In this document: one piece after another, positions 33,539 to 60,736 of the stretch | How the letters are laid out: the number at the start of each line of letters is the position of its first letter | Position numbering within the stretch: position 1 is the first letter of the stretch | DNA from: Burkholderiales bacterium | Lineage (GTDB): Bacteria; Patescibacteriota; Minisyncoccia; Phycocordibacterales; UBA9973 | Length of the DNA stretch: 64,000 nucleotides | Assembly: GCA_023701005.1 (NCBI GenBank) | Contig: JAMPXW010000002.1 | Span: forward strand, 177,167-241,166 | Direction of reading: 5' to 3' | The notes under the pieces: generated by a model | What the model was told of the DNA's origin: nothing | What the model saw: the letters and a program-made list of their open reading frames with translations, nothing else | Database searches by the model: none | Translations under genes and position numbers: made by a program

Positions 33539-33539
33539 G

Positions 33540-36355: not shown

Positions 36356-36356
36356 A

Positions 36357-37796: not shown

Positions 37797-37818
37797 AAAA
37801 CCACCAATTTTGTAAAAA

Positions 37819-37836: not shown

Positions 37837-37976
37837 CCCTCTAAAAATGTGGATAACTAGTGGATATGCTGTTCATTATCTACTATAATATAAGGGTATA
37901 AAAAAATATCGGATACCCGAGATACAGATTTTTTACACCTCGGACATCCGAGAAAGTATTATATATCTTTACAAAA

Positions 37977-38336: not shown

Positions 38337-38374
38337 TAGAAAGTTTGTAAAGTCATAAAGTTATAAAGTAAAAA

Positions 38375-44300: not shown

Positions 44301-47300
44301 CGACAGGCGTGACACGTTTTGGAATGGGTATAGACAATAGTGATGGAGATAAATTAAAAATATCTGCAGCCACAGACTTAAGTACAAACAATGTTTTGAC
44401 AATCGATTCTTCTTCTAATGTCGGTATCGGAACTGCAAGCCCTGGAGTACTTTTGCATTTATCAAAAAATGGAACAGCAAGCACACAAACAGTAATGGCT
44501 GTTTTAGAATCTGTCACCTCTCAAAGGCCAGTATTACAATTTAGTGAAGGTGGCTATGGTTTGACTAGTGGGATGAGCATTGAATACGATGGCAGGAGTG
44601 GAGGAAGAGCAAATCTATTAAATATAAATGATATTAATGGTGTAGCAATCGGAACATTCATGAGTGGCGGGAATTTTGGAATTCAAACTACATCCCCTAC
44701 TGCAAATTTGACAGTCGCTCAAAGCACAGCAGGAGTCGGAACAGTTTCAAATACAGCAGGAGGAACGACAGTCACAGGTAATGGCACAGAATTTACAAAC
44801 ACATTTAAAGTCGGAGATACCATAACAGTCGGAGGACAAACTGTCGCTATTTCAGCTATCGCGAGTGACACTAGTATGACAACTGCAGCCATAACAAATG
44901 CAAACACAAACGCTGCATACACATTAGTAGGTGGAACAAGAATGGTTGTAAAAGGTAATGGAAATGTTGGCATTGGTTTAACGAATCCTTCTGCAAGACT
45001 TCATATTTCTGAAGCAGGACCAGCATATGATTGGGACTCGTTGAGAGTAGATTTTCAAGCAAATGGAAATTTGAATAGTTTAAATTCTTCAGCTGGTAGA
45101 TTCATAAATACTCTCGCACCAAGCTCTCAATCTTATGCTATCGGTTCATTAGGAGAAGCAATAAAAACAGGGCACTATGGCTACACGGCCACAGGAGCAG
45201 AAGGTCGTGGAATATATAGAAGTAATTCTTTAGGAACAAGCTTAGCTTCATTAGATTTGTACGGTGTTAGTGGTAAAGTGTCTGTCGAAGGCACAGGAGC
45301 AAACACAATCAATTCAGGAAAATCTTTGTATGCTTATGCCAACGTAGACGCTGGAAATATTTTAAGTACTTACTGGGGAGTTTATGTAAAATCTCCATCA
45401 GGAACAGGAACGATAACAAACAAATACGCATTAGTCACAGAAGCAGGTGCGGGAAACGTGGGAATTGGTTTGACTAACCCAGGCTTCCCTCTCGCAGTGC
45501 AAGGAACAATACAAGGAAGAGGCATAGCTTATTTCACTCAAGCTTCACCAACAAATTCTCTAGCGATAGATGCAACTTCAACAACTTTACACAAAATTTA
45601 TACAAACAATGCTGGTATTGATTTATCTTTGGGAACAAATAGTTCAACTTCACAATTATATTTACAATCTGCAGGCAACGTCGGTATCGGGACAACGAGT
45701 CCAGGAGCAAAATTAGATATCCTCGGATCAAATAGTGCAATGGCCTTAAATCTCAGAAGTTCTAGTGGCCAAATTCAATTTTTCCCATACAGTGATAATA
45801 AAAATTACATAGAAAGCGTAGACGGTACTGGTACAGCTTCACAACTTCTCTACTTCACTGGATACAGTGGAACAGCAGGAACATTTTCTTTTAATGGCAA
45901 CGTCGGTATCGGGATGACTTCACCAACTTACAAATTAGATTTGCAAGGATCAGCTTGGAACAATATTGCACGTATATATTCTACAGGTAGCTCTAGTGGC
46001 TTAGACTTTTATGATTCTGGAGTAAGACGTGGTGTTGTTTATAGTGATTCTAGTGGTTTTGGATTATTAAATAGTGCTACTAGTTGGGCTATTAAAATAC
46101 CTTACGGTACAGGTAATGTTGTCGTAGAAAATGGAAATATGGGTGTCGGAACATCAAGCCCAAGTGCAAAATTAGATGTCGTTGGAAATATAGAATTAGG
46201 AGCAGCTGTCGGCACCACTAGATATATCTTAACAGACGAAACAAACACCGGTACTGGAAAAGTCGCAATACAAGCAGGAGCTGGTTCAGCAGCCTTTGGT
46301 GGTGCTATAAATCTTTATGCTCAAGCACATGCTACAAATCCTGGATGGGTACAAATTGGTATTGGTTCTGGGGCTGGAAGTGGAGGGACAGAAGGAAGAT
46401 TTACTGTAAACAATCAAGGACTAGGTGGAGGAACTGATGTCTTCACAGTATTAAGAACAGGTAACGTCGGCATCGGGACGACGGGGCCGAGTCAGAAATT
46501 GGAAGTTAATGGTAATGCATTAGTAACAAAACTTGGAATCGGTCAACTTGATGCCGCGAATTATGTGTTGGATGTAGGTGGTGCGGCGAGAATCTCTTCA
46601 AGCGGAAATGTGAATTTTAATCAGGCAAGTGGCGCTGCGACTTTTCATGGACAAGTAAATTTCCCTGGGTCAGGGGTTTGGCAAACAAGCGGCAACGTCG
46701 GCATCGGGACGACGAGCCCAAATCAAAGATTAGAAATTGGTAGTTCCGGAAATTACCAAATGCGCATAGGTAATGGTTCTACCGCTGCTTATTCATATGA
46801 TTTTGGAAGAAATACAACAGATGGTTTATTTTATTTATACGGAAATCAAACTGGAGCAAACGGATATGTTTTTAGTGGAATAAATGGTGAAAGAATGAGA
46901 ATAAATGAAAGTGGTAACGTCGGCATCGGGACGACAGCACCTGGAACTAAATTAGATATTGCTGGAACCATGCACACAACAGGCCTATATACTGCGAGCG
47001 CGGGTATCCAACTTGAAGGTCAAAATTTAGGCTGGGATCAAAGTGGAGTTAGATCTTGGACAATGGGAACAGCTGCTTCTAGTGGCAATATGACATTAAA
47101 ATCTGGAGATGAAGCTGGAATTTTTCGTGTTTTAACAACAACAACTTCATTAAGTGGTAATTTAATTGTTTCTGGTACTACAAATAGTTCTATCGCTGGA
47201 AATCTAGGTATTGGAACGATAAATCCTGGAGCTGATTTAGTTATAGAAAACAGTGGTACAAACAATACCCAACTATGGTTACAAAATACTGGTACAGGTA

Positions 47301-50300
47301 TTACAGAAATCGGTTTTGATTCGGCAAATGGAGATTTCGCTGGTAGCGATTACATGTCTTTGGGGCAAAATGATTCATTGGATGGATATATTAAAATGTT
47401 TGCTAACGCTGGAAGATTTCATATAGATACAGGAGGAGTTGAAAGATTTACTATCTTACAAAATGGAAATCTAGGTATCGGAACAACAGCACCAGGGTCA
47501 AGATTGGTAGTTAGTTCAGCTGGGATTGTTGCAGGGACACCTGAATTTGTTGTCGGTGATTATGGAACAATAAAATTAAAAACATACCAGACTGGAAGTA
47601 CTTATGCAGCGATGTATACAGGCAACAATGAAGACTTAAGAATCACTGCTGGAACAGATAATAGTCAATTAGTACTAAAAGCAAATAATGGAAACATTGG
47701 AATTGGTACTGCCTCCCCTACCGCCTTCAAGCTCCAAGTCGCAGGAAGTGTCGGACCAAATGTAGACAATTCTTATGACTTAGGTTCTTCTGGAGCAAGA
47801 TGGAGAAACTTATACATCTCTGGGACGATAGCTCAAGGAGGATATTTAGATAATAGTTTAGACAATTTAGTTTACAACGGAGATTTTGAAACAAATTCTA
47901 CAAATGGTTGGACGGGGGGAGGCACAGCAATAGTCACAGGAGGACATTCTGGAAATTATGCAATGCAAGTGACAGGCAACCAACAAATAGAAAGTGTTGA
48001 CTACATCCCCGTCAATCCTGTAAGAGATATTTTACAATTAGAAATCTACGCGAAAAAGTCTGTAGCTGGAACTACACCAGGAATACTCTATTTAGGATAT
48101 ATTGCATATGATGCAAACAAAGCAGCCATTTACACAGCTCCTTGTGGATCATATTGTTATTTTGCTGCTTCTGCTTATACATTACCAGCAGATGGAAATT
48201 GGCATAAATTCAATGCAACGACAAACGGTGAAGGTACGGTTTATCCCAACTTCCCTGTCGGGACGAAATTCGTTCGTGTATTAGGATTAATAAACTACAG
48301 TGGATCTGCAGATGCAGTGACTTTAATAGACCATATCACATTAAAGAGATTAAATTATGGACCTACATACATAGGAAACAACTTCGGAACGACAAACCAA
48401 GCAGACCAAACTCAATTGAGTAAACTCTACACAACTTCTGTAAATAATTTAATAATAGATACTCCTGCTAGTAACGGAAATATAGGATTCGGAATAACAA
48501 ATCCAAATCCTTTTGCTTGGTCATCCAAAGCATTCACTCTTCAATCTACTGGTACAAATACTTATTCATCTCTTGAAGCTTTTGGAACAGGTACAGGGTC
48601 TGGAGCATTATTGTTAGGTAACAGCACCATTCACAGAGCAACTATATCTACAGCTGACGGTTCTCACCTCACATTCTCAACAAACAATAACAACGCCGCT
48701 TCATACATGACAGAAAAAATGAGAATCACTGCAACGGGCAACGTCGGAATCGGAACGACTTCTCCAGATCAATTATTGCAAGTAAATGGCGCCAGCGGCA
48801 CAGCGATAAGTATCAAAACTCCTTGGGCTGCGAGTGCTTATGGTCAATTGAGATTTGATACAGGAACAGGTAGCTCTTCTATCCGTTCTTCTGTGCCTGG
48901 TGATTCTACAAATGGTTTACAATTCTTTACTTACTCTGGTGGAGAGACTGTAAAAATGTCTATCACTGGTGCAGGCAATGTTGGTATCGGACTCACAAAT
49001 CCAGCATACAAATTAGATGTTGTCGGAGGAATTCATTGGAATCCTGGAGTGACAGGTTCTCCTGAAGGCTTTATGTCTGGATCAAGCGCTGAACAATCTA
49101 TTCAACTAGGATCATTAACAAATAGTCCCCTTTCCCTAACAACAAATGCCCTAACGAGATTATTCATTGATGGAAATGGAAATGTCGGTATCGGGACGAC
49201 AGTACCAACTTACAAAGTAGACATAGCTTCCACAGGTAATGCCTTAAAGATAGGTCAATCAGGAACAGCTACAAACACCATCTATCAAACATTCACAAAC
49301 GGTGGAGGAAGTGTTTATCTTGGAATAGATAATTCTGGAGGTAATGGATTATTCACAGGAGGCGCAGGCTATGCTGCAGCTTTCGGACATGGAGGAAATT
49401 ATCCAATAGAATTCGCGACAAATAGTACTGTCAGAATGCTCATCGACGGTTCCGGAAATGTGGGAGTAGGTACAGCGACACCACAATATGGAAAATTAGA
49501 AATAGCAACCACTGCATCTAATGTTGGAGGTTTAACCTTGTATCGTGGAACAGGAACGACGGCTAGACACTGGATCAATTCATCTGATGTTTACTTAATT
49601 CAAAGAGCTATTACTGACACTTATGGCATTGCAATAGACAACGTTGGAAATGTCGGCATCGGAACGACAAGTCCAGTCAGTATCTTAAACATTAATGCAA
49701 CTTCTCCAGTACTTACTCTTACGGGTTCTACAAGTGGACAAGAAACTATTGCTTCACAAATTCACTTTGCCGTCGGTAATTATTCTGGAGCAAGAATCAA
49801 AGCGATCCAAACGGGAGCAAGCTATGGTTATCAAGTTGGGTTAGGATTTTTTACACAAGACGCTCCATACGATGCTAACTCTTTTGAAAGAATGAGAATA
49901 TCAAGCACCGGAAACGTCGGCATCGGGACGACGGCGCCAGGTAAAACTCTTGATATAGCAGTTTCTCCCAATGCTAGTAATGGTATTTTGGTAAGAGATA
50001 ATAATGATGCAACAAAATCTATATTAATTACGAGTTCACAAGGATCCACTGCCTTCCCGTACATTGGTACAAATGGTAATAGGCGTCTTGATTTTGGTAC
50101 AAATACTGCACGACAAATGACAATAGATACAACCGGCAACGTCGGTATCGGGACAACGGCACCGAACGCGCCTTTGTCATTTGGAACAGTTACAGGGGAT
50201 AAGATTTATCTCTATGATGGAAGTGGCAATTATGGATTTGGTGTGGACTCGGGAGGGGCTTCCCAACTAAACATCTTCACAGGAAATTCTGCGGATATGT

Positions 50301-53300
50301 GGTTTAGAAGCGGTGGTGGGGATGGGACCGTCAGGATGGCAATTGTAGGAACAACTGGGAATGTCGGTATCGGGACGACGGCGCCAGGAAATCTATTAAA
50401 CATATATAGAAATTCTTCTTCTACACTACCTATAACACGAATAGAAGATGCTGGAACAGGAGATGCATCAATGGCGTTTGCCCTCACAGGAGTAGCTGGG
50501 TTTTCTATCGGTATAGACAATAGCGACGATAATAAGTTTAAAATTTCAGGAAGTGGAACAGATGTGGGGAGTAATCCGTATTTAACTATTTTAGGGACAG
50601 GACCAACAGTAGGTAACGTCGGCATCGGGACGACGAGTCCGGGAACTAAATTACAGATTGTGGATAGTGATGGCTCAAATGGAACGATTGGAGTTGGAAT
50701 AAATTCAAGGGGGACATTTGGGTGGAATAATGCTGGTCAAGGTACTCTAGAGATAAAAAATAATCTTACAAGTGGAAGTCCTAACGCTATTACTTTTTGG
50801 GCTGCTCCAACCAGTGGAACTGTTGCTGAGATGATGCGTATTCAAGGAAATGGCAACGTCGGTATCGGAACGACAGCACCGGGGGCAAAATTAGAAGTTG
50901 TAGGAAATACATACATATCTGGAATAAGTTCAGGAACTGGAAATAGGCTTTCTTTTGATACTACGGGAGGGGCGGCTTCTAACTGGATCGGCACAACGAA
51001 TGATTATTGGACATCAATAGTCAATGGAAGAGGTTCAGGATCAAGAATAGATTTAGCTACTAATGATATAAGGTTTACCTTTGGTTCAGATGTGGGAAAT
51101 ATGCTTTTAAAAGCAAATGGGAATCTCGGAATTCAGACAGTTTCTCCTGTTGCAAATTTCCAAGTATCACAAAGCAGCACAGGCGTAGGCACAGTCACCA
51201 CAAATGGAACAACAACATTAACAGGTTCAGGAACACAATTTACAAATACATTTAAAGTTGGAGACACTATCACAGTATCTGGAGAAACAGTGAGAACTAT
51301 TGCCACCATTGTGAGTGATACTAGTTTGACTACGACTGTCGCCTTCTCTACTACTGCTTCTTCCCTTTCATACACCCTCACTGGTGGAGACAGGTTTGTT
51401 GTTAAGGGTAATGGAAATGTTGGGATTGGAACGACGGCACCAAATAAAACATTACACGTAATAGGTGATGTTCGTGGTGGAGCTTATTATAATAATAATT
51501 CTGGAGATGGTTGGTTAATTAATCAAGATTCAGGAACAAATAGAGGATTGTATTATTACAACACAACAGGTACGTGGGATTTGTTTGACGGAGGAACTTC
51601 AAAAATTAGTATGGGTATTAACGGAAATATTCAAATGGACGGAATACTCACAGTAAGCGGTACAGGGAATACCACAATCGCCGGCAACGTCGGTATTGGG
51701 ACGACGGCGCCAGTCACTCGTCTAGATGTAAGAGCTTTAAATGCCCTAGATGGAATTACTTTATCAGCTAATTCTGGAGGTTCTTCTGTTTTTAGAATGG
51801 TAAATCCGACTGTATCTAATAATTTACAAATTGGTACTTTGTCTAGTAATGACGTAGACATCATAGCTAATGGTAGTTCCAAGATTACTATTCTAAACGC
51901 AAACGGCAACGTCGGGATAGGAACCACATCCCCTGCACAAAAATTAACTATCAGTGGTGGAAATATCGGAATACTTGGACAACAAGATTTAATGCTTTAC
52001 GATTCTGATAGTTCACATTATAGTGGATTCCAAGCACATGCGACAACTACAAGTAATTCAATTTACACAATGCCAGCAGCCTTCCCTGGCTCTACTTCCT
52101 TCATGAAAACAGATTCAGCTGGAAATCTTTCTTGGGATACAAGCACTTATATAACAGGCAACCAATCTATCTCATTATCTGGTGATGCTTCAGGTTCAGG
52201 AACGACAGCAATAACAGTGACAAATAATTTATTAACCAAAGAAGACAATAGAACAATCTCTCCAAGCGAACTCACAACAGGGAAAATGCGTTTCGGATTT
52301 ACAAGTTGGGCAAACAATGACAGCTCCCCTTATGCAGATTTCTTGCATTTGAGAAGTTATACTGATGCATCAGGAGGAACAGATAATTTAGTAATGTTCA
52401 ACAAGAGTGTAATAGCAATGAGAATTTATCAACAGACTTACGGCTCCGCTACAGCATATTCTTCTTACAGAGATGTATTAACGACAGACACAGGTACAGG
52501 AGGCACAGCAAATTATATTCCTAAATTTACTGGTGGAACAACATTGGCAAATTCTTTAATGTTTGATAATGGAACAAATGTCGGTGTTGGGACAACAGCA
52601 CCTTCATATAAATTAGATGTCAGTGGACAAATTAGAGCAAATGCTGGTGCTGGTGTAGCAGGAATATTTACAAGTACAGCCGATTATCAATTAGCTTTAT
52701 CAAGTTCTGACAGTTGGACCGGAATTGGCTTCGATGATTCTGGAGCAATAAATGATTCTATTTGGTATCAAGGTACTACTGGAACATTCGCAATCGGTGG
52801 AGGTGGAAGTAGCGGAGTCACTAGTAAGAAATTACACATAGATGGTGCAACGACAATCGGTGCAAACTATGATGCCACAGCAATACCAACCAACGGATTA
52901 AGAGTCGAAGGTCAAACTTGGCTAGATAGTAACGTCGGTATCGGGACGACAAATCCTTTTCAAAAATTTGAAATAGATTTAGACCCTACAAATACAACTC
53001 AACCTACTGGAATTAACGGAACTGGAACAGATCCTCACACAGGAATGTTTATTCTAGGTACCGGAAATGCAAACAATGAAAAACTCGGCCTACAAATCGG
53101 TTTGTGGAGTAACGGTACAAACAAATATAGTATTGGAGGATTGTTTGGGGTAATGACTTCTGCTTCTGGAAACACCATCGGTGATTTAACTTTTGATCTA
53201 AGATCAAATGTAAATGACTCTTACCTAACAGAAAGAATGAGAATAACAAATGCCGGTAATTTAGGAATTCAAACTGCCTCTCCTGTCGCAAATTTCCAAG

Positions 53301-56300
53301 TCTCTCAAAGCACTACCGGGGTAGGAACTGTCGCAACGAATGGAACGACGACATTAACGGGGACAGGAACACAATTTACAAATACTTTTAAAGTTGGAGA
53401 CACTATCACAGTATCTGGAGAAACAGTCAGAACTATCGCTACTATCGTAAGTGATACAAGTTTGGCTACGACTGTTGCCTTCACTACTACTGCTTCCTCT
53501 CTTTCATACACTCTTACTGGTGGAGATAGATTTGTTGTTAAGGGTAATGGAAATGTGGGCATAGGGACGACAGCGCCAAATAAAACATTACACGTAATAG
53601 GTGATGTTCGTGGTGGAGCTTATTATAATAATAATTCTGGGGATGGTTGGTTAATTAATCAAGATTCAGGAACAAATAGAGGATTATATTATTACAATAC
53701 AGCAGGTACGTGGGACTTATTTGACGGAGGAACTTCAAAAATTAGTATGGGTATTAATGGAAATATTCAAATGGACGGAATACTCACAGTAAGCGGTACA
53801 GGAAATACCACAATCGCCGGCAACGTCGGTATCGGGACGACGGCACCAGGAGCAAAACTTCAAGTTCAGGGTGCAATAAAAATACAAAATATAGTACCTT
53901 CATCTCCAGATCAAAACTTTAGAAGAATGATAAATGTCGCTTCATATCAAGGCGGAGGAACAATACGAACTGGAATCCTTACTGTAAAATTACCTACTCC
54001 CCTTGTTCATTCAATGGGAAAAATAAAAATAAGTGGTTGGAGTTATGGGCAATCTTGGGAAATTGATGTATCGGGATATATGCACCCTGGCACTGGTAGC
54101 GGATGGACACAAGTCGGTGGAACCGTTGTTTCAGGAAATCCACCATTCTCCCCGCATCAAGTAAAACTCGTCGCAGAAACGACAACTACAGATACTTTCT
54201 ATGTTTTGCTTGGTAATGCATCAACAAATTGGGGATATTATGCTAGCGTCGGTGTCGATGTTGATAGCTATTATTCAGACGGTCTTGGGTCAACTGGATG
54301 GGATATTAGTATCGCTGCCGCAGAACCAGCTTATGACACCTCGATCGTTCCAACAGTTTCTTCATATGGAAGTAGCAATGCTTTAATTTCTGGCAACGTG
54401 GGTATCGGGACGACAGCACCAATAAGAACTTTAGAAGTAAATGGCGGGATACAAGCATCCTCTGCTGGTTTTTATTTAGGTACTAATAGTGCTTTAGCTC
54501 AAAGTTCTTCAACTATAAAATTAGGTTGGGTTGATAGAGGAGAATTAGCAAATACTTTTATAACTCAAATCTTTTCAGGAGGAACAGGAACGACAACAAC
54601 TCCAACGATGACATTAAACGGAAATGTCGGTGTTGGTATAACAAATCCTATATACAAACTTGATGTATCACAAACAACTGTAAACAATGGTTCAGGGGTA
54701 AATGTCGTAGTTGGTAATTTTAATTCTACTGTCACAGCAGGCTCAGGAGCAGCAAATGCTGGAAGTGCAATATTAAGAGTTTCCGTAGCAGGAGGCCCTC
54801 ATGCTACGGACATAGAACAAAATGATGGAGGTTCTGCTCCATTCAGATACGGAACATACATGGATACAAACATCGTAAATAAAGATGTAAGTTCTGGTGC
54901 TTATGGAAATATAAATTTCGTAACTGGAAGTAGTACCAGTACTTCTAGTGTGGTGATGACGATAGGTGGAGGAACACAAAAAGGATTTGTAGGAATAGGT
55001 GCCACACCTACTTCTAAATTAAGTATCCAAAATAATGGTGCTTCCGACAACATTCTAAGCAATTATGCTATTACAAACGGAAATAATGCCGCAACTTTCA
55101 GAACGAGTGACACTGGTCCAATATTCGGAATTCATGCACAAAACAATGGTGCTATCTATATAAAAGATACAAGCGATAACGTACTATTCTATGGTAGTAA
55201 CGGTGGCAACGTCGGTATAGGGACAACGGCACCAGGAGTGACTCTAGATGCCTATGGAAGAATTCGAGCAGGGACAAGCTATAGAACAACAATATTTGGA
55301 GACGGAACAGGCTCAAAAATAATGCTCGGCTCAGAGTCCGACGAGGATTCCTTGGCGGTAATTGGATCATTTGGTACATCTTTACAATTAGATAGTTACA
55401 ACGGTCCAATCGTATTTAAATATTCAAGTGCTGAAAAAATGCGAATAGGAACCGATGGCAACGTCGGTATTGGGACAACAGCACCTGCTTCTCGTTTGCA
55501 TGTATCTACGTTGAGTTCTAATGATGGAGCTTTAGGACAACGTTGGTCTTATAATGGAGGAGATAGTTCCTATTATTTAGATCTAAAACAGACGGTCACC
55601 GCTGGCATAGTACGATGGAATTTCTCACAACTTAATAATGGGACAGCATACAATAATGTATTGGTTCTAGATAGAGGCAACGTCGGCATCGGGACGACGG
55701 CGCCAGGAACAAAAGTAGACGTAATCGGTGGCGACTTGCAAGCAAGCGGATTCGGACATTTTAAAGGTTGGAATACTGCAGGAGCTACTGGCTTAGGATT
55801 AGATGTTGGTATAAGTTCAAATCAAGGTTATATTATGGCATATGATAGGACTGCCTCAACTTATTATCCACTTAGAATCGTAGCTTCTAACAACACAGGA
55901 TCTGATGGATTAACATTAGCAACAAATGGCAACGTCGGTATCGGGACAACGGCACCAAGTAGAAAATTAGATGTCGCTGGATCAATAGTTGTCTCTGCTA
56001 ATGAAGTATGGTTTGCAGATAATACCGTAGCTCGTTTTGGCAAACAGGCTGACCATGGAACAATAATAAAAGCAGCAACAGGTACAACAAACGATTTTGC
56101 ATTGGCCGCACCTACAGGTTCTATATTAATGCAAAACCCAACAGCAACAGCAAACCTAGCATTTATGGCTGGTAATCTTGGTATCAATACAACAAATCCA
56201 AAAAATAAGTTAGATATTTATTTCAGTTCAGGAAATTATAGTGCTACAGCTTACAACGCTTCCCCTCTTGTATTGAGCACTCCTGATTATGCAACAGATT

Positions 56301-59300
56301 CAAAATTCTCAGGAATAAGATTTACAAATGTTAGTGGCAATAGAGAATCAATGTTTGGCACAGTGCAAACATCCCAAAACCAAGCTGATTTTGTTTTCCA
56401 AGGTTACAATGCAACAGCAGTTGCCTATCAAGAATATTTGAGAATAAAAAATGACGGAAAAGTCGGTATCGGGACGACGGCACCATCAAGCAATCTAACG
56501 ATGGTTGGTGCTAATGGAGGAATGACTGAATTCAGTATTTTTGATTACGCAGGAACAGTCGCAGGTTTCCAAATCAGATATGATGACAGCACTGGTGCAA
56601 CTTATTTAGATAATAGATACGATAATGCAAGTGGAGATATATTTATAAGGACAAAAACTTATGGGACAGCCGTAAATGCACTTACAATAGAAAGTGCTGG
56701 AAACATCGGTATCGGGACGACAGCACCTGGAAGTATCTTGCATTTGAATGTAGCTTCAGGAGTCCCTTATCAAACATTTTCTGTCGCCAATACACCGTTT
56801 GGATATGTTGGGGCAGCGGGTGCATTTTTCTCTGGACAAGGAACTAATTTCGGATTATATGGTGGTGGTAGTAGTAATATTATGATTGGAGCTCGCAATA
56901 GTGCTGATCTTACAATAGCAACTTCTGGTAACGTCGGTATCGGGACGACGAGCCCAGGACAAAAATTAAGTGTTGTTGGAAATATTGACCTCAGCGGTTC
57001 TATCGGCGGAACTGGTATGTTGTATATAGGAAAATCTGGAACAAAAACTGGCTTAGCTTATGATTCTTCAAATCAAAATTACGGTATCTTTTATACAGAA
57101 GGAGCTACCGATGCTGTTTCTATAGCTCCTAACGGTGGAGGAGACACGACTCCTGTCGCATACTTTAGTGGTAATGGCAACGTCGGCATCGGGACGACAG
57201 CACCAGCATCAGCTCTGTCTCTCGTTGGAGATATCGCCCTAACCTCTGGCGGTTATATATATGGAGACAACACAGATCCACATATTAAATTACATGCTGC
57301 ATTTGGTGCTATTATTGGATATTCAACAAATGAACTTTATATAGGTAGCGATTACAGCTTTTTGACTAATGGAACAACAAAAATGAAATTAAAAAATAAT
57401 GGCAATCTTGGTATTGGAACTGCTTCTCCTACTGCGAACTTGCAAGTCGCACAGATTTCTTCTGGGGTTGGAACTGTTTCAAACACCGCAGGTGGAACAA
57501 CAGTCACTGGAGTCGGCACACAATTCTTAAATACTTTCAAGGTTGGAGACACTGTGACGATCGGAGGGCAAACAGTCGCTATTTCTGCGATAGCGAGTGA
57601 CACTAGTATGACAACTGCAGCCATAACAAATGCAAACACAAATGTTGCATACACATTGACAGGAGCTGTAAGATTTTCAGTTTTAGGAAATGGCAATGTG
57701 GGAATAAGTACTACAGCACCTGGAGAATTATTATCTCTCGGTACAGCAGGCACCACAAAAGGTGTGCTTTCATTAGCAGGAAATACTTCTGGAAAAATAA
57801 TTATCCAACCAGCAGCCGCTGCAGGAACATACACACTCACCCTCCCTACTACCGATGGAGATGCCAGCCAAGTGTTGACGACTGATGGATCTGGAGTTTT
57901 GTCTTGGGCTTCAGCAGGAGGATCTTCTCAATGGACGACGACTGGTTCAAATATTTATTACAATACTGGTAATGTCGGCATCGGGACGACAGCACCAACT
58001 GCCAGACTTCATATAAAAGAAGCAATTTCTACCACAGTTGAAGGCTTAAGAATAGAAGATTCAACTGCGACGGGTGGATATTTAAAACTTTCAGATGCCT
58101 CTAGTGTAAGTGGACATTTCATTCCTTCTTTCTGGTCAAAAGGAATAGGTACAGGAGCAGCAGACAGAAATGGTTTTATGATAGTGGCTGAACCAGGGGA
58201 AGATGGAGCAGATGATGCAGGCATAGTATTGAATGCTCGTCTGAATGGTGCTGCTTTAACAAATGCTTCGGTATTAAAAATACAAAATTATGCTACTGAA
58301 CTAATGAGAATTGGTGCTAGTGGAAATGTCGGAATTGGAAACACAAATCCAGGATACAAATTAGATATTGCCGGAAATATAAATCTCCAAGCATCAGGGT
58401 ATCTAAGAACAGGTTCAGGTGACACAGAAATAGGTGCCTCAAGTACAGATTGGTATGTAAAAACATATGGTGGAGGAGCATTAACAGAAAGAATAAGAGT
58501 AACGAGTACAGGAAATGTAGGAATAGGAACCAACAGTCCACTAGAAAAATTAACTGTCCAAAACGGTAGCATCCTTGCTTCTAATGGAACAATATATGCA
58601 CAACCACAATCATTAACAATTTTTTCCAACTCAGCATCTACTTCAAACTCTCCAACTGGATATGTTTACCAATCATTCACGCCAACAACTGATATGCTAG
58701 CCACCGCATTAAGTGTAAATTTGTATAAACCTGGAGGTATTAGTACAATTTATTATATCTATACAGCAAACGGTGATGCTCCAGACCAATCATTGGGATT
58801 TGCTATGTCAGGGACAACAGAAGTTATGGGGTGGACTAGATTAAATCTTGATACCCCAATAGCTCTTAAAGGTGGAACAAAATACGTTTTATATGTAATG
58901 CAATCTTCAGGATATATAAAATACTCAAATACAGATGTATATTCTGGTGGTGTTTCAAGCGTGGGAGCAAGTAATGATATGCTATTTCGAATAGAGGGTT
59001 CTGTATCTAATGTAATCTCTGCTTTTTCAACGTCTACAACAAATGGATCAGCTAACTCTTACCAATCATTCACAACAACAACCGATATGCTCGTTACTGC
59101 AATCAGTGCAAATATTTACAAACCTGGTGGAAATTATGCATATTATTACATCTATACAGCAAACGGTGATACCCAAGACCAAGCATTGGGCTATGCGATA
59201 TCAGGGACAGCAGAGGCTGGAGGGTGGACTAGACTAGAATTGCCTAGCCCCATAGCCTTAAAAGCAAATACAAAATATGTCTTATATTTCACTATTACTG

Positions 59301-60736
59301 GGGGGTATACTAAATATTCAAATACTGATGTATATTCTGGTGGTGTTTCAAGCGTGGGAGCAAGTAATGATATATTATTTATGATAGAAGATTCAAGTGT
59401 CACGGCTAATCAACATTTTCCAAGCGTGGCATCATCTAGTGGTACAAATTTAGTCGTAGGTCCTAATGGTAAAGTTTATAAATACTCTTCTTCTGCTAAA
59501 TACAAAGAGAATATAACACCCTTAAAACAAGATTTTTCTAAAATCTTAGAAATACAACCAGTATCATATGACTATATCGCAACAAAGACTCATGATATTG
59601 GATATACGGCTGAAAGTTTAGACTTATTAGGTCTAAAAGATTTGGTAATATATGATTCTGAAGGGACACCAGATGCTATAAAATATGACAGAATATCTCT
59701 ATATAACTTAGAAGTAACGAAACAACAACAAAATATATTAAACATATTAAATCCTTCTATATCTAAAGAAATAAAACAAGATATCCTAGAATATACAGAT
59801 TACAGTAATGCACTTTCTATGATAACAAAAACCCCACTTTACTCTTTCAAATACAAAGATGAAGTAAAGGAAAATGAAGAAGATCCTTCTTTAGTAAAAA
59901 CTCGTATTGGATATATGTCTGAAGAAGTAGATCCGACTTTCCTTCTGGGAGACAAAATAGATCAAGTATCTGTAAATGGATTATTGATAGCTTCCATAAA
60001 AGAATTAAATCTAAAAATAGAAGAATTGGGTGGAGGACAAATAAATACAGAAGGTGCTACTGTCACCTTCGGGGAATACGCAAGTATGTTCTTTAATGAC
60101 GTGTTAACAAAAGTAGAAAACGGAGTAGCTTATATGAAAAATCTAGCTGTAGAAACTCTCAAGATAGGTAGCCCTGAAAAGCCAAGTGGTATCACAATGT
60201 ATGACGAAGTGACTGGTGACCCATATTGTTTCTCAATATCAAATGGCTCAACAAAAACATTGCTCGGAGAATGTCCTTCTATTACTCTTCCTTCAAAAGT
60301 AGCGACAAACATAGAAGGCACATTAGAAGGTGGAACAGTGTCTTCTGGAGATGTAGACAAACCAACGATCACTCTAGAAGGACAACAAATAGTGATGCTA
60401 GATGTCGGAGCTTCATATAGTGAGGCTGGTGCTCTAGCTAAAGACAATGTAGATGGAGATGTGGCTGTCGTCATTAGTGGATCTGTAGATACTTCAACTG
60501 CTGGAATATATACCATCACATACACAGCGACAGACTCAAATGGCAACACAACAACAATGACAAGAACAATACAAGTCGGAGAAGTTTCTATGATAACTCC
60601 TTCAGACATTCCAGTAACGACAGAAACGCCGACAGAAGAAACTACACAGACAGAAACTCCAACAGAAAACACAAATACCGAGCCTGCTCCATCATCAACC
60701 GAATCCACAACAGCACCAACAGAACCTACTGCCTAA
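38375..60736 (+). CDS. Giant secreted repeat protein (7453 aa) with about 70 GNVGIGTTAP-type repeats, internal segmental duplications, and a C-terminal intramolecular-chaperone autoproteolysis (Peptidase S74-like) domain followed by coiled coil, DUF5011-like Ig domain and TPE-rich tail; probable trimeric surface fibre/adhesin
   Basis: Single uninterrupted ORF (22,362 nt). N-terminal signal/TM (IIFAIFILIFVFSPFAKGEA). Conserved N-terminal module INYQGKLTGSSG...IWTE...LGVNIGG...TPRKKLGTVPSA. Recurring ...EKMRI(T/D)xxGNVGIGTT(A/S)PxxKLxV... units. C-terminal SSSAKYKENITPLKQDFSKILEIQPVSYDY...IGYTAESLD...KYDRISLYNLEVTKQQQ (S74 chaperone domain, Ser/Lys dyad conserved), then ...PTITLEGQQIVMLDVGASYSEAGALAKDNVDGDVAVVISGSVDTSTAGIYTITYTATDSNGNTTTMTRTIQVG (DUF5011-like). 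Confidence 0.85.
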   Translation: MLKTKLQINKINTTKIIFAIFILIFVFSPFAKGEAAINKQINYQGKLTGSSGVAVSNGTYNMEFKLYTVSSGGTAIWTETRTDANKVQVTSGLFSVLLGEVSTLDNVDFNQTLYLGVNIGGTAVSPAWDGEMTPRKKLGTVPSAVVAEKAINILGGSAGYVPFQTAANTTSFSSNFFWDNSTAKLGIGTTAPVQKLTISGGNIKLDDSYYLDWSNGSERITGTGLSGNYSLKFETYNGSALTEKMRILGNGNIGIGTTAPNALLHLSGSAGSNGPNSGLILNASYGLGTSVNNIDFRINGNAIRAASLGAAANVGGADLTFYTSSNFATTDATEKMRIDKNGNVGIGTTAPGFKLDVNGISAANQFYSGGVNITSSGIWGVGSSAEALIGFGSAQAGGARPWNFSSGGTGKTGGYFTWNIDTVEKMRLDNSGNVGIGTTAPGAKLHVEGTNEILSLTGTTPYLRFFANPSQSYIGSGSGLVSGMAVTDLAIRSASNIGFSIGTSEKVRIDSSGNVGIGTTAPVEKLNVNGNINITGGELRMFNNSTVLAATSSNLLSINNGGFSNVAITNGNIGIGTTTPAYKLHVNGVAYSSSYFYAPEGIFTSVQANKVFPTSSVDLRLQTRDNTDNILFEIDTNAPSEKMRITSAGNVGIGTTAPTYKLQVATAVNSAGIVHSNSSNGTRVYTFIDSSDNGLLLLKNSSNIDNINLNTGGNSYLNGGNVGIGTTAPGQKLDVVGGSIRTDNQLISTIATGTSPLSILSTTKVTNLNADILDGYHYNSFIPVSGYHFTNGYLIATDISAASNTMFSVEITGNSYGDGKPIHITLQGYNYTAGDAIINYSGVAEDWTRTVKAFNYNGYLYFWLDQSSSFQSITAYVKNTMETNNVNHVTAITNEVEPTTGTTRKVSIVPKQIWNSGNDGVASTLDADLLDGQHGSYYQTALTNPVTGTGTTNYLSKFTGTSTLGNSLIFDNGTNVGIGTTAPTQKLSINGSVNMISNGAITFENTNNNGNWYIRNSGTNLASLDFGIGAVGASDKIRFDSNGNVGIGTTAPGATLDVAGTIRTTSTITTGSYFYNNSASDANKYLTNTPGPSYMGFRGHGINNNTNSVLSIGYTTLPSTLISPVLSVVDNGNVGIGTTAPTQMLQIGGNTTSSIGMRIAPAGANWDIVTDGSQGLNIKNGNGNYLTFINSSQISSFTGNVGIGTTAPTAKLDINNGVNRTNNPTSLIVAGTGVLGTTAGSYLYPSETISNAGNTLRLQTTAYRRDAGSTWFGAGFRIQYAVDNSFTDGTGSFLEMGGRTDTTPYISLGTSGADRIYINSSGNVGIGTTSPSGKLEINGGAYDSSLVITTNVSSGADIKLNQTGTNGREWHITSTGSSNAMSAGGLQFYDDTAGAFRMGIQGSTGNVGINTGNPQAKLHIYNATAGGLNETIRSQGYWSAPGSGSLIRFTNYHASGTTPNTGEYNLAGIGGLDDNGGWGGSLYFQTAPTGTAGGAALQTRMTINPAGNVGIGTTSPGTKLNVIGNIASEKSAGGYVSSLFWQGNDPAIGYYSENGLLFGTETTMVGGAFSEKMRITNAGNVGIGTTAPAQALDVAGVINASTGFRIGNAATSGNYLRGNGTNFVSSAIQAGDVPTLNQNTAGYAALLVSEDNRTISPSELAINRLKFGFTSWANNDSSPYADFLHLRSYADSSGGADNLIMFNKSVIAMRIYQQTFGSATAYSSYRDVITTNTSASGTANYLPKFSSGTTIANSLIFDNGTNVGIGLTNPEGKMHIIGMNSAFPATTGTVQTGLEARFQPYDSNGVLDIGVNSGSGAWLQSTNRTSLSSNYPLLLNPNGGNVGIGTTAPATNLDVVGDIRASDTSGNYIYLDTTGANPGIVSNSSRSINIQPGSGLTTFYTSGTAGTLQIYDGSSSYPIILRAGGNSIFNGGSVGIGTASPASKLHVYDNNATTDHTIGLTIEQAGTGDAKLQWLTTGVTRFGMGIDNSDGDKLKISAATDLSTNNVLTIDSSSNVGIGTASPGVLLHLSKNGTASTQTVMAVLESVTSQRPVLQFSEGGYGLTSGMSIEYDGRSGGRANLLNINDINGVAIGTFMSGGNFGIQTTSPTANLTVAQSTAGVGTVSNTAGGTTVTGNGTEFTNTFKVGDTITVGGQTVAISAIASDTSMTTAAITNANTNAAYTLVGGTRMVVKGNGNVGIGLTNPSARLHISEAGPAYDWDSLRVDFQANGNLNSLNSSAGRFINTLAPSSQSYAIGSLGEAIKTGHYGYTATGAEGRGIYRSNSLGTSLASLDLYGVSGKVSVEGTGANTINSGKSLYAYANVDAGNILSTYWGVYVKSPSGTGTITNKYALVTEAGAGNVGIGLTNPGFPLAVQGTIQGRGIAYFTQASPTNSLAIDATSTTLHKIYTNNAGIDLSLGTNSSTSQLYLQSAGNVGIGTTSPGAKLDILGSNSAMALNLRSSSGQIQFFPYSDNKNYIESVDGTGTASQLLYFTGYSGTAGTFSFNGNVGIGMTSPTYKLDLQGSAWNNIARIYSTGSSSGLDFYDSGVRRGVVYSDSSGFGLLNSATSWAIKIPYGTGNVVVENGNMGVGTSSPSAKLDVVGNIELGAAVGTTRYILTDETNTGTGKVAIQAGAGSAAFGGAINLYAQAHATNPGWVQIGIGSGAGSGGTEGRFTVNNQGLGGGTDVFTVLRTGNVGIGTTGPSQKLEVNGNALVTKLGIGQLDAANYVLDVGGAARISSSGNVNFNQASGAATFHGQVNFPGSGVWQTSGNVGIGTTSPNQRLEIGSSGNYQMRIGNGSTAAYSYDFGRNTTDGLFYLYGNQTGANGYVFSGINGERMRINESGNVGIGTTAPGTKLDIAGTMHTTGLYTASAGIQLEGQNLGWDQSGVRSWTMGTAASSGNMTLKSGDEAGIFRVLTTTTSLSGNLIVSGTTNSSIAGNLGIGTINPGADLVIENSGTNNTQLWLQNTGTGITEIGFDSANGDFAGSDYMSLGQNDSLDGYIKMFANAGRFHIDTGGVERFTILQNGNLGIGTTAPGSRLVVSSAGIVAGTPEFVVGDYGTIKLKTYQTGSTYAAMYTGNNEDLRITAGTDNSQLVLKANNGNIGIGTASPTAFKLQVAGSVGPNVDNSYDLGSSGARWRNLYISGTIAQGGYLDNSLDNLVYNGDFETNSTNGWTGGGTAIVTGGHSGNYAMQVTGNQQIESVDYIPVNPVRDILQLEIYAKKSVAGTTPGILYLGYIAYDANKAAIYTAPCGSYCYFAASAYTLPADGNWHKFNATTNGEGTVYPNFPVGTKFVRVLGLINYSGSADAVTLIDHITLKRLNYGPTYIGNNFGTTNQADQTQLSKLYTTSVNNLIIDTPASNGNIGFGITNPNPFAWSSKAFTLQSTGTNTYSSLEAFGTGTGSGALLLGNSTIHRATISTADGSHLTFSTNNNNAASYMTEKMRITATGNVGIGTTSPDQLLQVNGASGTAISIKTPWAASAYGQLRFDTGTGSSSIRSSVPGDSTNGLQFFTYSGGETVKMSITGAGNVGIGLTNPAYKLDVVGGIHWNPGVTGSPEGFMSGSSAEQSIQLGSLTNSPLSLTTNALTRLFIDGNGNVGIGTTVPTYKVDIASTGNALKIGQSGTATNTIYQTFTNGGGSVYLGIDNSGGNGLFTGGAGYAAAFGHGGNYPIEFATNSTVRMLIDGSGNVGVGTATPQYGKLEIATTASNVGGLTLYRGTGTTARHWINSSDVYLIQRAITDTYGIAIDNVGNVGIGTTSPVSILNINATSPVLTLTGSTSGQETIASQIHFAVGNYSGARIKAIQTGASYGYQVGLGFFTQDAPYDANSFERMRISSTGNVGIGTTAPGKTLDIAVSPNASNGILVRDNNDATKSILITSSQGSTAFPYIGTNGNRRLDFGTNTARQMTIDTTGNVGIGTTAPNAPLSFGTVTGDKIYLYDGSGNYGFGVDSGGASQLNIFTGNSADMWFRSGGGDGTVRMAIVGTTGNVGIGTTAPGNLLNIYRNSSSTLPITRIEDAGTGDASMAFALTGVAGFSIGIDNSDDNKFKISGSGTDVGSNPYLTILGTGPTVGNVGIGTTSPGTKLQIVDSDGSNGTIGVGINSRGTFGWNNAGQGTLEIKNNLTSGSPNAITFWAAPTSGTVAEMMRIQGNGNVGIGTTAPGAKLEVVGNTYISGISSGTGNRLSFDTTGGAASNWIGTTNDYWTSIVNGRGSGSRIDLATNDIRFTFGSDVGNMLLKANGNLGIQTVSPVANFQVSQSSTGVGTVTTNGTTTLTGSGTQFTNTFKVGDTITVSGETVRTIATIVSDTSLTTTVAFSTTASSLSYTLTGGDRFVVKGNGNVGIGTTAPNKTLHVIGDVRGGAYYNNNSGDGWLINQDSGTNRGLYYYNTTGTWDLFDGGTSKISMGINGNIQMDGILTVSGTGNTTIAGNVGIGTTAPVTRLDVRALNALDGITLSANSGGSSVFRMVNPTVSNNLQIGTLSSNDVDIIANGSSKITILNANGNVGIGTTSPAQKLTISGGNIGILGQQDLMLYDSDSSHYSGFQAHATTTSNSIYTMPAAFPGSTSFMKTDSAGNLSWDTSTYITGNQSISLSGDASGSGTTAITVTNNLLTKEDNRTISPSELTTGKMRFGFTSWANNDSSPYADFLHLRSYTDASGGTDNLVMFNKSVIAMRIYQQTYGSATAYSSYRDVLTTDTGTGGTANYIPKFTGGTTLANSLMFDNGTNVGVGTTAPSYKLDVSGQIRANAGAGVAGIFTSTADYQLALSSSDSWTGIGFDDSGAINDSIWYQGTTGTFAIGGGGSSGVTSKKLHIDGATTIGANYDATAIPTNGLRVEGQTWLDSNVGIGTTNPFQKFEIDLDPTNTTQPTGINGTGTDPHTGMFILGTGNANNEKLGLQIGLWSNGTNKYSIGGLFGVMTSASGNTIGDLTFDLRSNVNDSYLTERMRITNAGNLGIQTASPVANFQVSQSTTGVGTVATNGTTTLTGTGTQFTNTFKVGDTITVSGETVRTIATIVSDTSLATTVAFTTTASSLSYTLTGGDRFVVKGNGNVGIGTTAPNKTLHVIGDVRGGAYYNNNSGDGWLINQDSGTNRGLYYYNTAGTWDLFDGGTSKISMGINGNIQMDGILTVSGTGNTTIAGNVGIGTTAPGAKLQVQGAIKIQNIVPSSPDQNFRRMINVASYQGGGTIRTGILTVKLPTPLVHSMGKIKISGWSYGQSWEIDVSGYMHPGTGSGWTQVGGTVVSGNPPFSPHQVKLVAETTTTDTFYVLLGNASTNWGYYASVGVDVDSYYSDGLGSTGWDISIAAAEPAYDTSIVPTVSSYGSSNALISGNVGIGTTAPIRTLEVNGGIQASSAGFYLGTNSALAQSSSTIKLGWVDRGELANTFITQIFSGGTGTTTTPTMTLNGNVGVGITNPIYKLDVSQTTVNNGSGVNVVVGNFNSTVTAGSGAANAGSAILRVSVAGGPHATDIEQNDGGSAPFRYGTYMDTNIVNKDVSSGAYGNINFVTGSSTSTSSVVMTIGGGTQKGFVGIGATPTSKLSIQNNGASDNILSNYAITNGNNAATFRTSDTGPIFGIHAQNNGAIYIKDTSDNVLFYGSNGGNVGIGTTAPGVTLDAYGRIRAGTSYRTTIFGDGTGSKIMLGSESDEDSLAVIGSFGTSLQLDSYNGPIVFKYSSAEKMRIGTDGNVGIGTTAPASRLHVSTLSSNDGALGQRWSYNGGDSSYYLDLKQTVTAGIVRWNFSQLNNGTAYNNVLVLDRGNVGIGTTAPGTKVDVIGGDLQASGFGHFKGWNTAGATGLGLDVGISSNQGYIMAYDRTASTYYPLRIVASNNTGSDGLTLATNGNVGIGTTAPSRKLDVAGSIVVSANEVWFADNTVARFGKQADHGTIIKAATGTTNDFALAAPTGSILMQNPTATANLAFMAGNLGINTTNPKNKLDIYFSSGNYSATAYNASPLVLSTPDYATDSKFSGIRFTNVSGNRESMFGTVQTSQNQADFVFQGYNATAVAYQEYLRIKNDGKVGIGTTAPSSNLTMVGANGGMTEFSIFDYAGTVAGFQIRYDDSTGATYLDNRYDNASGDIFIRTKTYGTAVNALTIESAGNIGIGTTAPGSILHLNVASGVPYQTFSVANTPFGYVGAAGAFFSGQGTNFGLYGGGSSNIMIGARNSADLTIATSGNVGIGTTSPGQKLSVVGNIDLSGSIGGTGMLYIGKSGTKTGLAYDSSNQNYGIFYTEGATDAVSIAPNGGGDTTPVAYFSGNGNVGIGTTAPASALSLVGDIALTSGGYIYGDNTDPHIKLHAAFGAIIGYSTNELYIGSDYSFLTNGTTKMKLKNNGNLGIGTASPTANLQVAQISSGVGTVSNTAGGTTVTGVGTQFLNTFKVGDTVTIGGQTVAISAIASDTSMTTAAITNANTNVAYTLTGAVRFSVLGNGNVGISTTAPGELLSLGTAGTTKGVLSLAGNTSGKIIIQPAAAAGTYTLTLPTTDGDASQVLTTDGSGVLSWASAGGSSQWTTTGSNIYYNTGNVGIGTTAPTARLHIKEAISTTVEGLRIEDSTATGGYLKLSDASSVSGHFIPSFWSKGIGTGAADRNGFMIVAEPGEDGADDAGIVLNARLNGAALTNASVLKIQNYATELMRIGASGNVGIGNTNPGYKLDIAGNINLQASGYLRTGSGDTEIGASSTDWYVKTYGGGALTERIRVTSTGNVGIGTNSPLEKLTVQNGSILASNGTIYAQPQSLTIFSNSASTSNSPTGYVYQSFTPTTDMLATALSVNLYKPGGISTIYYIYTANGDAPDQSLGFAMSGTTEVMGWTRLNLDTPIALKGGTKYVLYVMQSSGYIKYSNTDVYSGGVSSVGASNDMLFRIEGSVSNVISAFSTSTTNGSANSYQSFTTTTDMLVTAISANIYKPGGNYAYYYIYTANGDTQDQALGYAISGTAEAGGWTRLELPSPIALKANTKYVLYFTITGGYTKYSNTDVYSGGVSSVGASNDILFMIEDSSVTANQHFPSVASSSGTNLVVGPNGKVYKYSSSAKYKENITPLKQDFSKILEIQPVSYDYIATKTHDIGYTAESLDLLGLKDLVIYDSEGTPDAIKYDRISLYNLEVTKQQQNILNILNPSISKEIKQDILEYTDYSNALSMITKTPLYSFKYKDEVKENEEDPSLVKTRIGYMSEEVDPTFLLGDKIDQVSVNGLLIASIKELNLKIEELGGGQINTEGATVTFGEYASMFFNDVLTKVENGVAYMKNLAVETLKIGSPEKPSGITMYDEVTGDPYCFSISNGSTKTLLGECPSITLPSKVATNIEGTLEGGTVSSGDVDKPTITLEGQQIVMLDVGASYSEAGALAKDNVDGDVAVVISGSVDTSTAGIYTITYTATDSNGNTTTMTRTIQVGEVSMITPSDIPVTTETPTEETTQTETPTENTNTEPAPSSTESTTAPTEPTA

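Follow-up and report, generated by a model that had tools for sequence, protein, structure and literature searches.

Background

Among described systems, those nearest to the gene examined here include the MAT (mosaic adhesive trimer) fibres of Bdellovibrio bacteriovorus (Bd2133, PDB entry 8OND, and Bd3182; Caulton et al. 2024, PMC10769870). These proteins combine a signal peptide and a conserved N-terminal domain with a trimeric beta-helical shaft bearing capping loops and with S74 or other tips; the capping-loop motif reads V-G-G/N-pi-x-x-P-x-x-x-L, and members of the S74 subgroup end in a chaperone/protease domain marked by SDxxxK (PMC10769870). Here we describe a giant fibre gene of this general type on a 64,000-nucleotide (nt) stretch of contig JAMPXW010000002.1 (positions 177,167 to 241,166 of the forward strand; assembly GCA_023701005.1, deposited as a Burkholderiales bacterium and placed by GTDB in the Patescibacteriota), which we refer to as the window. 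Within this gene a block of two adjacent units, termed Y and Z, is present twice, and we consider it probable that an old intragenic duplication of Y, with or without Z, was followed by homogenisation or replacement of Z and by exchange at the junction motifs that join the units of the fibre.

In T-even phages, the distal tail-fibre genes reportedly recombine between conserved motifs, and short DNA-conserved motifs are said to separate variable segments there and to act as cross-over points for in-frame swaps between genes. Bacteria in the candidate phyla radiation (CPR), or Patescibacteria, rely on attachment to other cells; the giant surface proteins that they encode assemble poorly and have received almost no study. 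In the relevant passages of the reports on Vampirococcus lugosii (PMC8080830) and on the giant genes of Omnitrophota (10.1101/2023.11.21.568195), giant membrane-anchored repetitive surface proteins are thought to attach to host or prey, and the same passages on Vampirococcus give 1,392-4,163 amino acids (aa) for its largest proteins (PMC8080830).

A giant fibre gene of MAT and phage tail-fibre type

The giant gene consists of a single open reading frame (ORF) of 7,453 codons without internal stops, an uninterrupted frame of ~22.4 kb (Table 1), and its product is rich in Gly, Thr, Ser and Asn. Approximately 66 junction cores of the form G[IV]G[TIL] recur along the protein, mostly at a spacing of ~70-90 aa (range 15-349), and 48 of these are strict copies of GNVGIGTTxP. 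The N-terminus (MLKTKLQINKINTTKIIFAIFILIFVFSPFAKGEAA), read directly from the sequence, is signal- or anchor-like, with a basic start followed by a hydrophobic core. On this architecture, the gene is predicted to encode a secreted surface fibre of ~66 units joined by the GNVGIGTTAP junction peptide; the fibre is probably trimeric, and we infer that it attaches to a host cell.

In a comparison with MAT fibres, the signal-like start is followed by a beta-rich domain that appears to be a distant relative of the MAT N-terminal domain, with a weak NF053851 (Bdello_MAT_N) hit in which profile positions 10-78 of 162 align at E=3.3e-7; its 30.2 bits fall short of the curated cut-off of 60. The long shaft carries recurring GNxGxGTxAPxxKL loops, which correspond to the GNxGxGTxAPxxxL loops of MAT fibres, and the junction-motif profile aligns to three loops of Bd2133 (chain 8OND_A). 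Near the C-terminus is a Peptidase_S74 intramolecular chaperone domain (PF13884), whose score of 45.5 bits exceeds the cut-off of 22 (E=9.2e-12). Both systems also share a mosaic, domain-swapped build and a bacterial bearer with a probably cell-attached way of life. They differ in several respects. MAT fibres comprise ~1,000 aa and the protein described here is about seven times longer; its N-terminal match is below the cut-off; its S74 domain is not terminal, being followed by ~370 more residues (in the region 59489-60736) that include a Bact_surface_Ig-like domain and a Thr/Pro/Glu-rich tail; and the usual SDxxxK start of the S74 domain, aligned by eye, reads SSAKYK, with Ser in place of Asp, the candidate Ser-Lys dyad lying within S7039-S-A-K-Y-K7044. 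A search of the S74 region by sequence against the PDB gave nothing at E<=0.01. The shaft further holds four inserted Y beta-barrel domains, and the bearer is a low-GC, CPR-like bacterium rather than Bdellovibrio.

Tail fibres and tailspikes of phages that bear an intramolecular chaperone at the C-terminus (Peptidase_S74), such as the K1F endosialidase and T5 pb1, are similar in their S74 domain, in the matches to PHROG tail-fibre families 9942 and 18345 that run over the entire length of the giant protein, and in the N-terminal ~70 positions of PHROG 1980 and 1591, which the Y domain matches. In contrast to these, the giant gene stands among cellular genes, has a host-like third-position GC content (GC3), and encodes a signal peptide or membrane anchor. 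The comparison with T-even phages differs in that the motif recurs here ~48-66 times in one cellular gene, where exchange is read from sequence mosaics. Like the giant surface proteins known from CPR bacteria, from further episymbionts and from predators, the protein is very large, repetitive and membrane-anchored, and repeats fragment the assemblies of such genes (relevant passages of 10.1101/2023.11.21.568195); a junction-motif fibre family and cassette exchange are not described in the passages on Vampirococcus and Omnitrophota cited above (PMC8080830, 10.1101/2023.11.21.568195). The giant gene is a very long new example of a known MAT/phage-tail-fibre-like adhesin type, in a CPR-like genome.

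Two adjacent units are present twice

In a blastn self-comparison of the giant gene, the top off-diagonal match paired 51119-51713 with 53255-53849 at an offset of 2136 nt (E=0), aligning 595 nt with 57 mismatches and 0 gaps (90.4% nt identity). Both copies are in the frame of the giant ORF (aa 4249-4446 and 4961-5158), and 191 of 198 residues are identical. A preliminary description of this DNA had reported a near-identical ~600-nt duplication in the giant gene, to be checked by an off-diagonal line at an offset of ~2.1 kb, and both are borne out. Its figure of ~97% identity for the central part is slightly high, although a highly similar part does exist: identity is 86.3% over 51119-51418, 93.1% over 51400-51720 and 96.3% over 51440-51712, the best part being the 3' half. 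The 100 nt flanking the two copies are unrelated (23% identical before and 33% after), which identifies the repeat as a 595-nt block duplicated in dispersed form, rather than a leftover from a 2.1-kb tandem repeat. The duplicated similarity ends at the final base of the junction motif that closes Z. In short, the repeat is two adjacent units, Y and Z, present twice and bounded by the GNVGIGTTAP junction.

Whereas Z is an ordinary shaft repeat, Y carries a separate domain of ~75 residues (GTVTTNGTTTLTGSGTQFTNTFKVGDTITVSGETVRTIATIVSDTSLT...). In an AlphaFold2 monomer model this domain forms a compact beta structure with pLDDT >90 (residues ~20-90), and the shaft part has pLDDT 51-70, poor modelling being expected for the monomer of a fibre. 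The domain matches the tail-fibre families PHROG 1980 (E=1e-5) and 1591 (E=1.9e-5) over profile positions 6-79, as well as the N-terminus of a solved phage protein, the 'distal tail protein gp20' (PDB 23gd_B, E=0.002). Among the predicted viral structures of BFVD, a Foldseek search with the Y module returned 19 matches at E<=1e-3 (E 4e-5 to 1e-3), mostly to N-terminal parts of phage tail-fibre or tailspike proteins, and the closest-fitting of these had a root-mean-square deviation of 1.2-2.5 A over 70-85 aligned columns; the same search against the PDB gave weak matches alone, all at E>=0.015. By sequence and fold match, the predicted domain of the Y unit is the N-terminal beta-barrel of phage tail fibres (the N-terminus of PHROG 1980/1591).

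Relatives of the Y unit in a fibre context come mostly from metagenome-assembled genomes (MAGs) of Patescibacteria/CPR. With local identity reaching ~85%, the Y domain also recurs in head-tail adaptor proteins, as well as in proteins of ~290 aa whose contigs are ~40 kb long. Specifically, we observed the Ya-type beta-barrel (Ya being the subtype of the duplicated block) inside the phage head-tail adaptors P0011, P0014 and P0024 (PF05135 / PHROG 40), sometimes twice in tandem, and in the large family of ~290-aa phage proteins that includes P0019, P0048, P0059 and P0062. The stretch VSGETVRTIATI.SDTSLTVTVAFS is nearly invariant in all these settings.

Synonymous divergence changes at the internal junction

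The two halves of the block differ in their synonymous divergence. By Nei-Gojobori estimates, synonymous divergence (dS), non-synonymous divergence (dN) and the proportion of synonymous differences (pS) between copies 1 and 2 are 0.43, 0.018 and 0.328 for the whole block, 0.71, 0.0305 and 0.46 for Y, and 0.16, 0.0048 and 0.144 for Z, a 4.5-fold step in synonymous divergence that coincides with the internal junction motif. The Y copies are 85% identical in nt and 95% in aa, and the Z copies are 96.3% identical in nt. Differences affect 53 codons, 46 of them synonymously and 7 non-synonymously, with third positions accounting for 49 of the 57 changed bases; dN/dS is 0.04 overall and 0.03-0.04 in the halves. 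Both copies are under strong purifying selection, and the Y half is near synonymous saturation, its duplication being old. The earlier suggestion of a very recent duplication is contradicted by the overall dS, by the near-saturated pS of Y, and by a dS of Z that is still 0.16. Gene conversion, which had been proposed as the alternative, fares better, in that conversion (or cassette replacement) is supported by the mosaic of dS values and by an exact tract shared between two further Y units, described below.

We also considered a template/variable pair of a diversity-generating retroelement as a source of the repeat. This was rejected, as the mismatches are not adenine-specific (mismatch bases in copy 1 are A16, C15, T14 and G12, n=57) and no reverse-transcriptase family was found among the ORFs scanned.

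The Z unit occurs in other fibre genes

Scanning JGI metagenome contigs with Z, we found a third copy in contig L265 (Ga0172380_10007990). It is 96.0% nt identical to each of the window copies, with a dS of 0.16-0.18, the same as between the two window copies themselves. The ORF that hosts it encodes at least 2,679 aa and is a different fibre gene, with a different N-terminus, a non-Y unit upstream of Z, and unrelated flanks; its DNA similarity to the window is limited to 51412-51713, from junction motif to junction motif. Because the similarity of this third copy is bounded by junction motifs, Z behaves as a cassette, one that would have been copied or converted between positions and genes after the duplication of Y. 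A more distant Z (78-81% nt) is present in contig L266, beside a unit that is 82.6% nt identical to window positions 47450-47719; in the window, that unit is 3.7 kb from Z. More generally, DNA matches between the giant gene and related loci are unit-sized, and their ends mostly fall less than ~25 nt from the junction motif.

A second Y subtype and a candidate conversion tract

A profile hidden Markov model (HMM) of the Y domain identified exactly four full-length copies in the giant protein (166-173 bits); all remaining matches scored <20 bits and covered the junction motif alone. Two of the four belong to the duplicated block (subtype Ya), and the other two constitute a second subtype, Yb (...GGQTVAISAIASDTSMTTAAITNANT...). 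Mutual identity of the Yb copies is 79% in nt and 75% in aa; against the Ya pair it is 61-64% in aa (63-64% for the first Yb copy), and each Yb copy is 80% aa identical to copies in other MAGs (L011, L012 and L016), above their mutual value. By comparison, no external Y copy exceeds 83% aa identity to the Ya pair (best 79-83% aa, 77% nt), which is 95% aa identical mutually. These identities indicate that the Ya and Yb subtypes predate the recent history of the giant gene, the Yb units not being just earlier products of the same duplication series. The preliminary description had listed both Yb units as older copies of the duplicated module; the copies are real, but they form a separate subtype that is closer to other CPR copies (80% vs 75% aa).

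Within the 79%-identical Yb pair is an exact tract of 50 nt, for which a codon-column permutation gives P<=5e-5; other genomes that encode the same peptide match only 35-41 of the 50 nt. This suggests a short-tract conversion between the two Yb sites, which are 12.7 kb apart.

The junction motif is conserved as DNA

The preferred codons inside the 48 strict motifs are GGC AAC GTC GGT ATC GGG ACG ACG GCA CCA, at frequencies above the gene's own usage. Thus GTC provides ~79% of Val inside the motif vs 23% elsewhere in the gene, GGG provides 69% of Gly vs 8%, and ACG provides 64% of Thr vs 8%. Motif GC3 is 0.54, whereas the gene's usage for these amino acids outside the motif predicts 0.195 (p=1e-44); the excess does not extend beyond the motif codons, third positions being otherwise 24% GC. 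Since the three Gly positions of the motif prefer three different codons (GGC, GGT and GGG), the pattern points to the propagation of one specific DNA sequence and away from a general codon bias. The junction DNA consensus is also present in the fibre genes of several other CPR MAGs, though not all, and the exact GC-rich 24-mer of the junction occurs in >120 IMG/VR contigs of 29-65% GC, including two giant-virus MAG contigs. We propose that the motif serves as the short homology that mediates unit-level recombination, and that homogenisation, possibly GC-biased, is responsible for its wobble pattern.

GC-rich junction DNA was also seen in an 8.1-kb contig labelled Thermoplasmata archaeon (L018, JBBABA010000024.1, 1-8093), which consists of one truncated fibre ORF of bacterial or phage type; the archaeal label is possibly a binning error.

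Two other sources of the motif's DNA conservation were examined. A universal nucleotide constraint on the motif is unsupported as a rule: among 244 motif instances sampled without bias from 119 viral loci, those in ORFs of low GC3 (<0.3) have a motif GC3 of 0.24. A hairpin in the junction motif (CGTCG...CGACG, with a stem using four wobble positions), considered as a possible target of the neighbouring RAYT-like protein, likewise found no support, as the paired wobble positions are pairable in 23-24 of 36 cases vs 26-34 of 36 in controls, with no excess covariation.

Origin of the duplicated block

The most probable history begins with an old internal duplication of the two-unit block, or of Y at the least, after which purifying selection has kept both copies almost unchanged in protein. 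Z would have been homogenised or replaced much later, with recombination end-points in the junction motifs, and the Z cassette would also have been traded with one or more other fibre genes. In this sequence of events, the near-identical junction DNA (~48 copies) may supply short homology for in-frame copying, conversion and swapping of units. The order of these events, and the role of the motif as a recombination anchor, are inferred.

Several points weigh against this history. A single assembly underlies the order of units over 41.5-60.7 kb. No orthologue turned up in a related strain (a wobble-degenerate DNA pattern for a Z peptide gave nothing in GTDB genomes, a protein search gave no match >82% identity, and the downstream gene is absent from the records searched), so that copy-number variation and the direction and timing of events are not observable. 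L265 could be a paralogue in the same genome, which would leave exchange between genomes undemonstrated, and the GC-rich wobble of the motif could have causes other than recombination. Finally, Z is rich in Asn, Tyr and Asp codons with a strong AT preference, which could partly lower its dS; the synonymous-site-weighted test given next argues against this composition being sufficient.

A single duplication of the whole 595-nt block, after which the halves came to differ by mutation or codon-usage constraint with no later conversion or exchange, would be in keeping with the very strong purifying selection on both halves (dN/dS 0.03-0.04), with the richness of Z in two-fold, AT-biased codons, and with the differences inside Z, which are not clustered (longest-run test, P=0.60). 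We nevertheless regard it as improbable. Third-position differences number 40 in Y vs 9 in Z, an imbalance that persists after synonymous-site weighting (0 of 20,000 permutations, P<5e-5), and the step in divergence falls on a junction motif. Moreover, the external Z is as close to the window copies as these are to each other, whereas the best external Y reaches just 77% nt and 79-83% aa.

Alternatively, each of the two copies of the block might have entered separately as an inserted cassette whose source was a phage or another fibre gene, without duplication inside the giant gene. That units are common to several genes (Z in L265 and L266, the 47.45-kb unit in L266), that phage tail-fibre and adaptor proteins widely carry the Y domain, and that exact 24-nt junction DNA occurs in so many viral contigs would all favour such an origin, to which we assign a similarly small chance. 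The similarity of the window Y copies to each other (95% aa, 85% nt) exceeds by far their similarity to any of the external copies found (<=83% aa, 77% nt), both copies have the same Y-then-Z order with identical unit boundaries, and the GC3 of the giant gene, 0.24, matches that of host genes.

It is very unlikely that the 595-nt duplication is an assembly artefact, whether a repeat-induced mis-join or two strain alleles in one contig: 20 regions of the gene do hold 31-mers repeated elsewhere within it, an independent k=31 assembly of this organism stops at one such 31-mer, related fibre genes are fragmented in many MAGs, and local assembly errors are known for giant repetitive genes (10.1101/2023.11.21.568195), but the 57 differences follow an evolutionary pattern (the codon counts given above, and 37 transitions vs 20 transversions), the unrelated flanks are not those of two alleles of one site, and the frame is uninterrupted over 22.4 kb with a longest shared exact stretch of 65 nt.

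The Logan contig L002 (SRR23907158) equals window positions 28222-41530 with 0 mismatches in 13,309 nt, and ends exactly where the 31-mer 41501-41531 recurs at 43892-43922; by our own count, contig ends cut 16 of 25 related fibre ORFs in public MAGs (GTDB representative genomes). Given that the longest exact repeat shared by the block copies is 65 nt, reads of at least 100 nt tell the copies apart. Short-k assemblies therefore break at the junction motif and not at the 595-nt duplication, which is resolvable with ordinary reads. The preliminary description had regarded the repeats as sites of assembly collapse; this is apt for the motif, at which short-k assemblies break, but the 595-nt duplication itself is unlikely to collapse.

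Other features of the gene and its surroundings

The coordinates of the features discussed are collected in Table 1. The binding tip of the fibre is probably formed by two tandem lectin-like/DUF4082-like domains, which immediately precede the S74 domain. The gene also contains another dispersed intragenic duplication, whose two full copies differ with a dS of 0.73 and a dN of 0.078, and one of which sits between both copies of the 595-nt block.

Table 1. Positions, in window coordinates, of the features of the giant fibre gene and its neighbourhood.
Feature	Position	Strand	Description or basis
tRNA-Thr genes (CGT, GGT)	33539-33696	-	Two genes, located where GC rises
Giant fibre gene	38375..60736	+	ORF, 7,453 aa; motif count and spacing, Pfam, PHROG, N-terminal sequence
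N-terminal beta-rich domain	38474..38686 (aa 34-104)	+	Putative distant MAT-family N-terminal relative; NCBIfam NF053851 Bdello_MAT_N
Junction motif, 48 strict copies	38914-58520 (e.g. 41501-41530, 43892-43921, 51683-51712)	+
DNA-conserved junction motif copy (GGCAACGTCGGTATCGGGACGAC...)	41501..41530	+	Independent k=31 assembly ends here
Other dispersed intragenic duplication	43310-43708 and 52229-52627 (also 41221-41322)	+	82% nt, 76% aa identical
Y unit, subtype Yb, first	44669..45010 (aa 2099-2212)	+	First 'older copy' of the preliminary description; HMM, 173 bits
50-nt exact tract	44861..44910	+	Candidate short gene-conversion tract; identical to 57593-57642
Y unit copy 1 (subtype Ya)	51119..51439	+	Degenerate junction GNLGIQT, ~75-aa beta-barrel domain, then GNVGIGTTA junction
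Z unit copy 1	51440..51713	+	One ordinary fibre (shaft) repeat; ends in perfect GNVGIGTTAP junction
Y unit copy 2 (subtype Ya)	53255..53575	+	Self-comparison, HMM
Z unit copy 2	53576..53849	+	Self-comparison
Y unit, subtype Yb, second	57401..57742 (aa 6343-6456)	+	Second 'older copy' of the preliminary description; self-comparison, HMM
Partner of 50-nt exact tract	57593..57642	+	Identical to 44861-44910
Lectin-like/DUF4082-like tandem pair	58666-59001 and 59059-59394	+	393-nt period, 78% nt, 72% aa identical; just before S74 domain
Peptidase_S74 intramolecular chaperone domain	59489..59617 (aa 7039-7081)	+	Pfam PF13884
Ig-like domain (Bact_surface_Ig-like)	aa 7332-7401	+	Pfam
RAYT-like HUH/Y1 protein, 242 aa	60778-61506	-	NCBIfam REP_Tyr_transpos, E=1.4e-8, below cut-off; 42 nt downstream of giant gene
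RAYT-like homologues near fibre genes	L016 4300-4923; L012 2405-3067; L266 6733-7362; L009 8952-9581		Other loci

The genes around the giant fibre gene are cellular and include CTP synthase, FtsE/FtsX, a release factor, G6PD, 6PGD, RsgA and Nramp. No capsid, portal, terminase, sheath, baseplate or tail families were found among the neighbouring genes scanned, which gave just weak fn3/tail-fibre-like and excisionase-like helix-turn-helix (HTH) matches. Genome GC is ~30%, and GC in the window climbs from ~0.30 to ~0.40 at the two tRNA-Thr genes. The higher overall GC of the giant gene is attributable to its Gly/Thr/Ala-rich composition at codon positions 1-2, GC3 being unchanged and equal to that of the host's housekeeping genes nearby. 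A foreign island beginning at the tRNA-Thr genes was accordingly rejected, there being also no tRNA-derived repeat of >=13 nt elsewhere. Nor does the giant gene appear to be part of a phage or prophage, with its host-like GC3, no phage structural neighbours, and no flanking tRNA-derived direct repeat.

Upstream of the fibre gene are four co-directional genes (33932-37796, +). One of these, at 35579-36355, has a weak match to PamT, a pilus protein of CPR type (E=3.7e-12, the score lying well under the cut-off), and another (36357-37796) has fn3-like and tail-fibre-like matches; a gene for a 119-aa HTH_17/excisionase-like protein (37977-38336) is directly ahead of the giant gene. A Patescibacteria/CPR genome is suggested jointly by this pilus match, by the low genome GC and by the MAGs in which relatives of Y in a fibre context mostly occur. 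On the other side, the gene for a RAYT-like HUH/Y1 protein follows closely in the opposite orientation. RAYT-like homologues (31-38% identity) are found ~0.3-2.8 kb from fibre genes at four other loci from different MAGs or metagenomes. The presence of this gene beside fibre genes could reflect a part in a system of cassette exchange, or coincidence.

Implications for fibre evolution

The 595-nt duplication is in itself an ordinary feature of a repetitive adhesin gene, and the sharing of cassettes bounded by junction motifs, together with the conservation of the junction at the DNA level, is of more interest than the duplication. We view the giant gene as an adhesin of the MAT/phage-tail-fibre type stretched to 7,453 residues, whose internal repeats would record a unit-by-unit rebuilding of the fibre with break-points in the DNA-conserved junction motif. 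Tentatively, and as a possibility that we hold to be less likely than its opposite, the motif DNA might be maintained as the homology anchor of a cassette-exchange system, in which whole units would move in frame by copying, conversion or swapping, from one position or fibre gene to another and possibly also between CPR genomes and their phages, thereby providing recombination-based variation of a host-attachment fibre. If such cassette exchange were general, it would account for the mosaic build of this fibre family and may offer its bearers a route to rapid change of host range.

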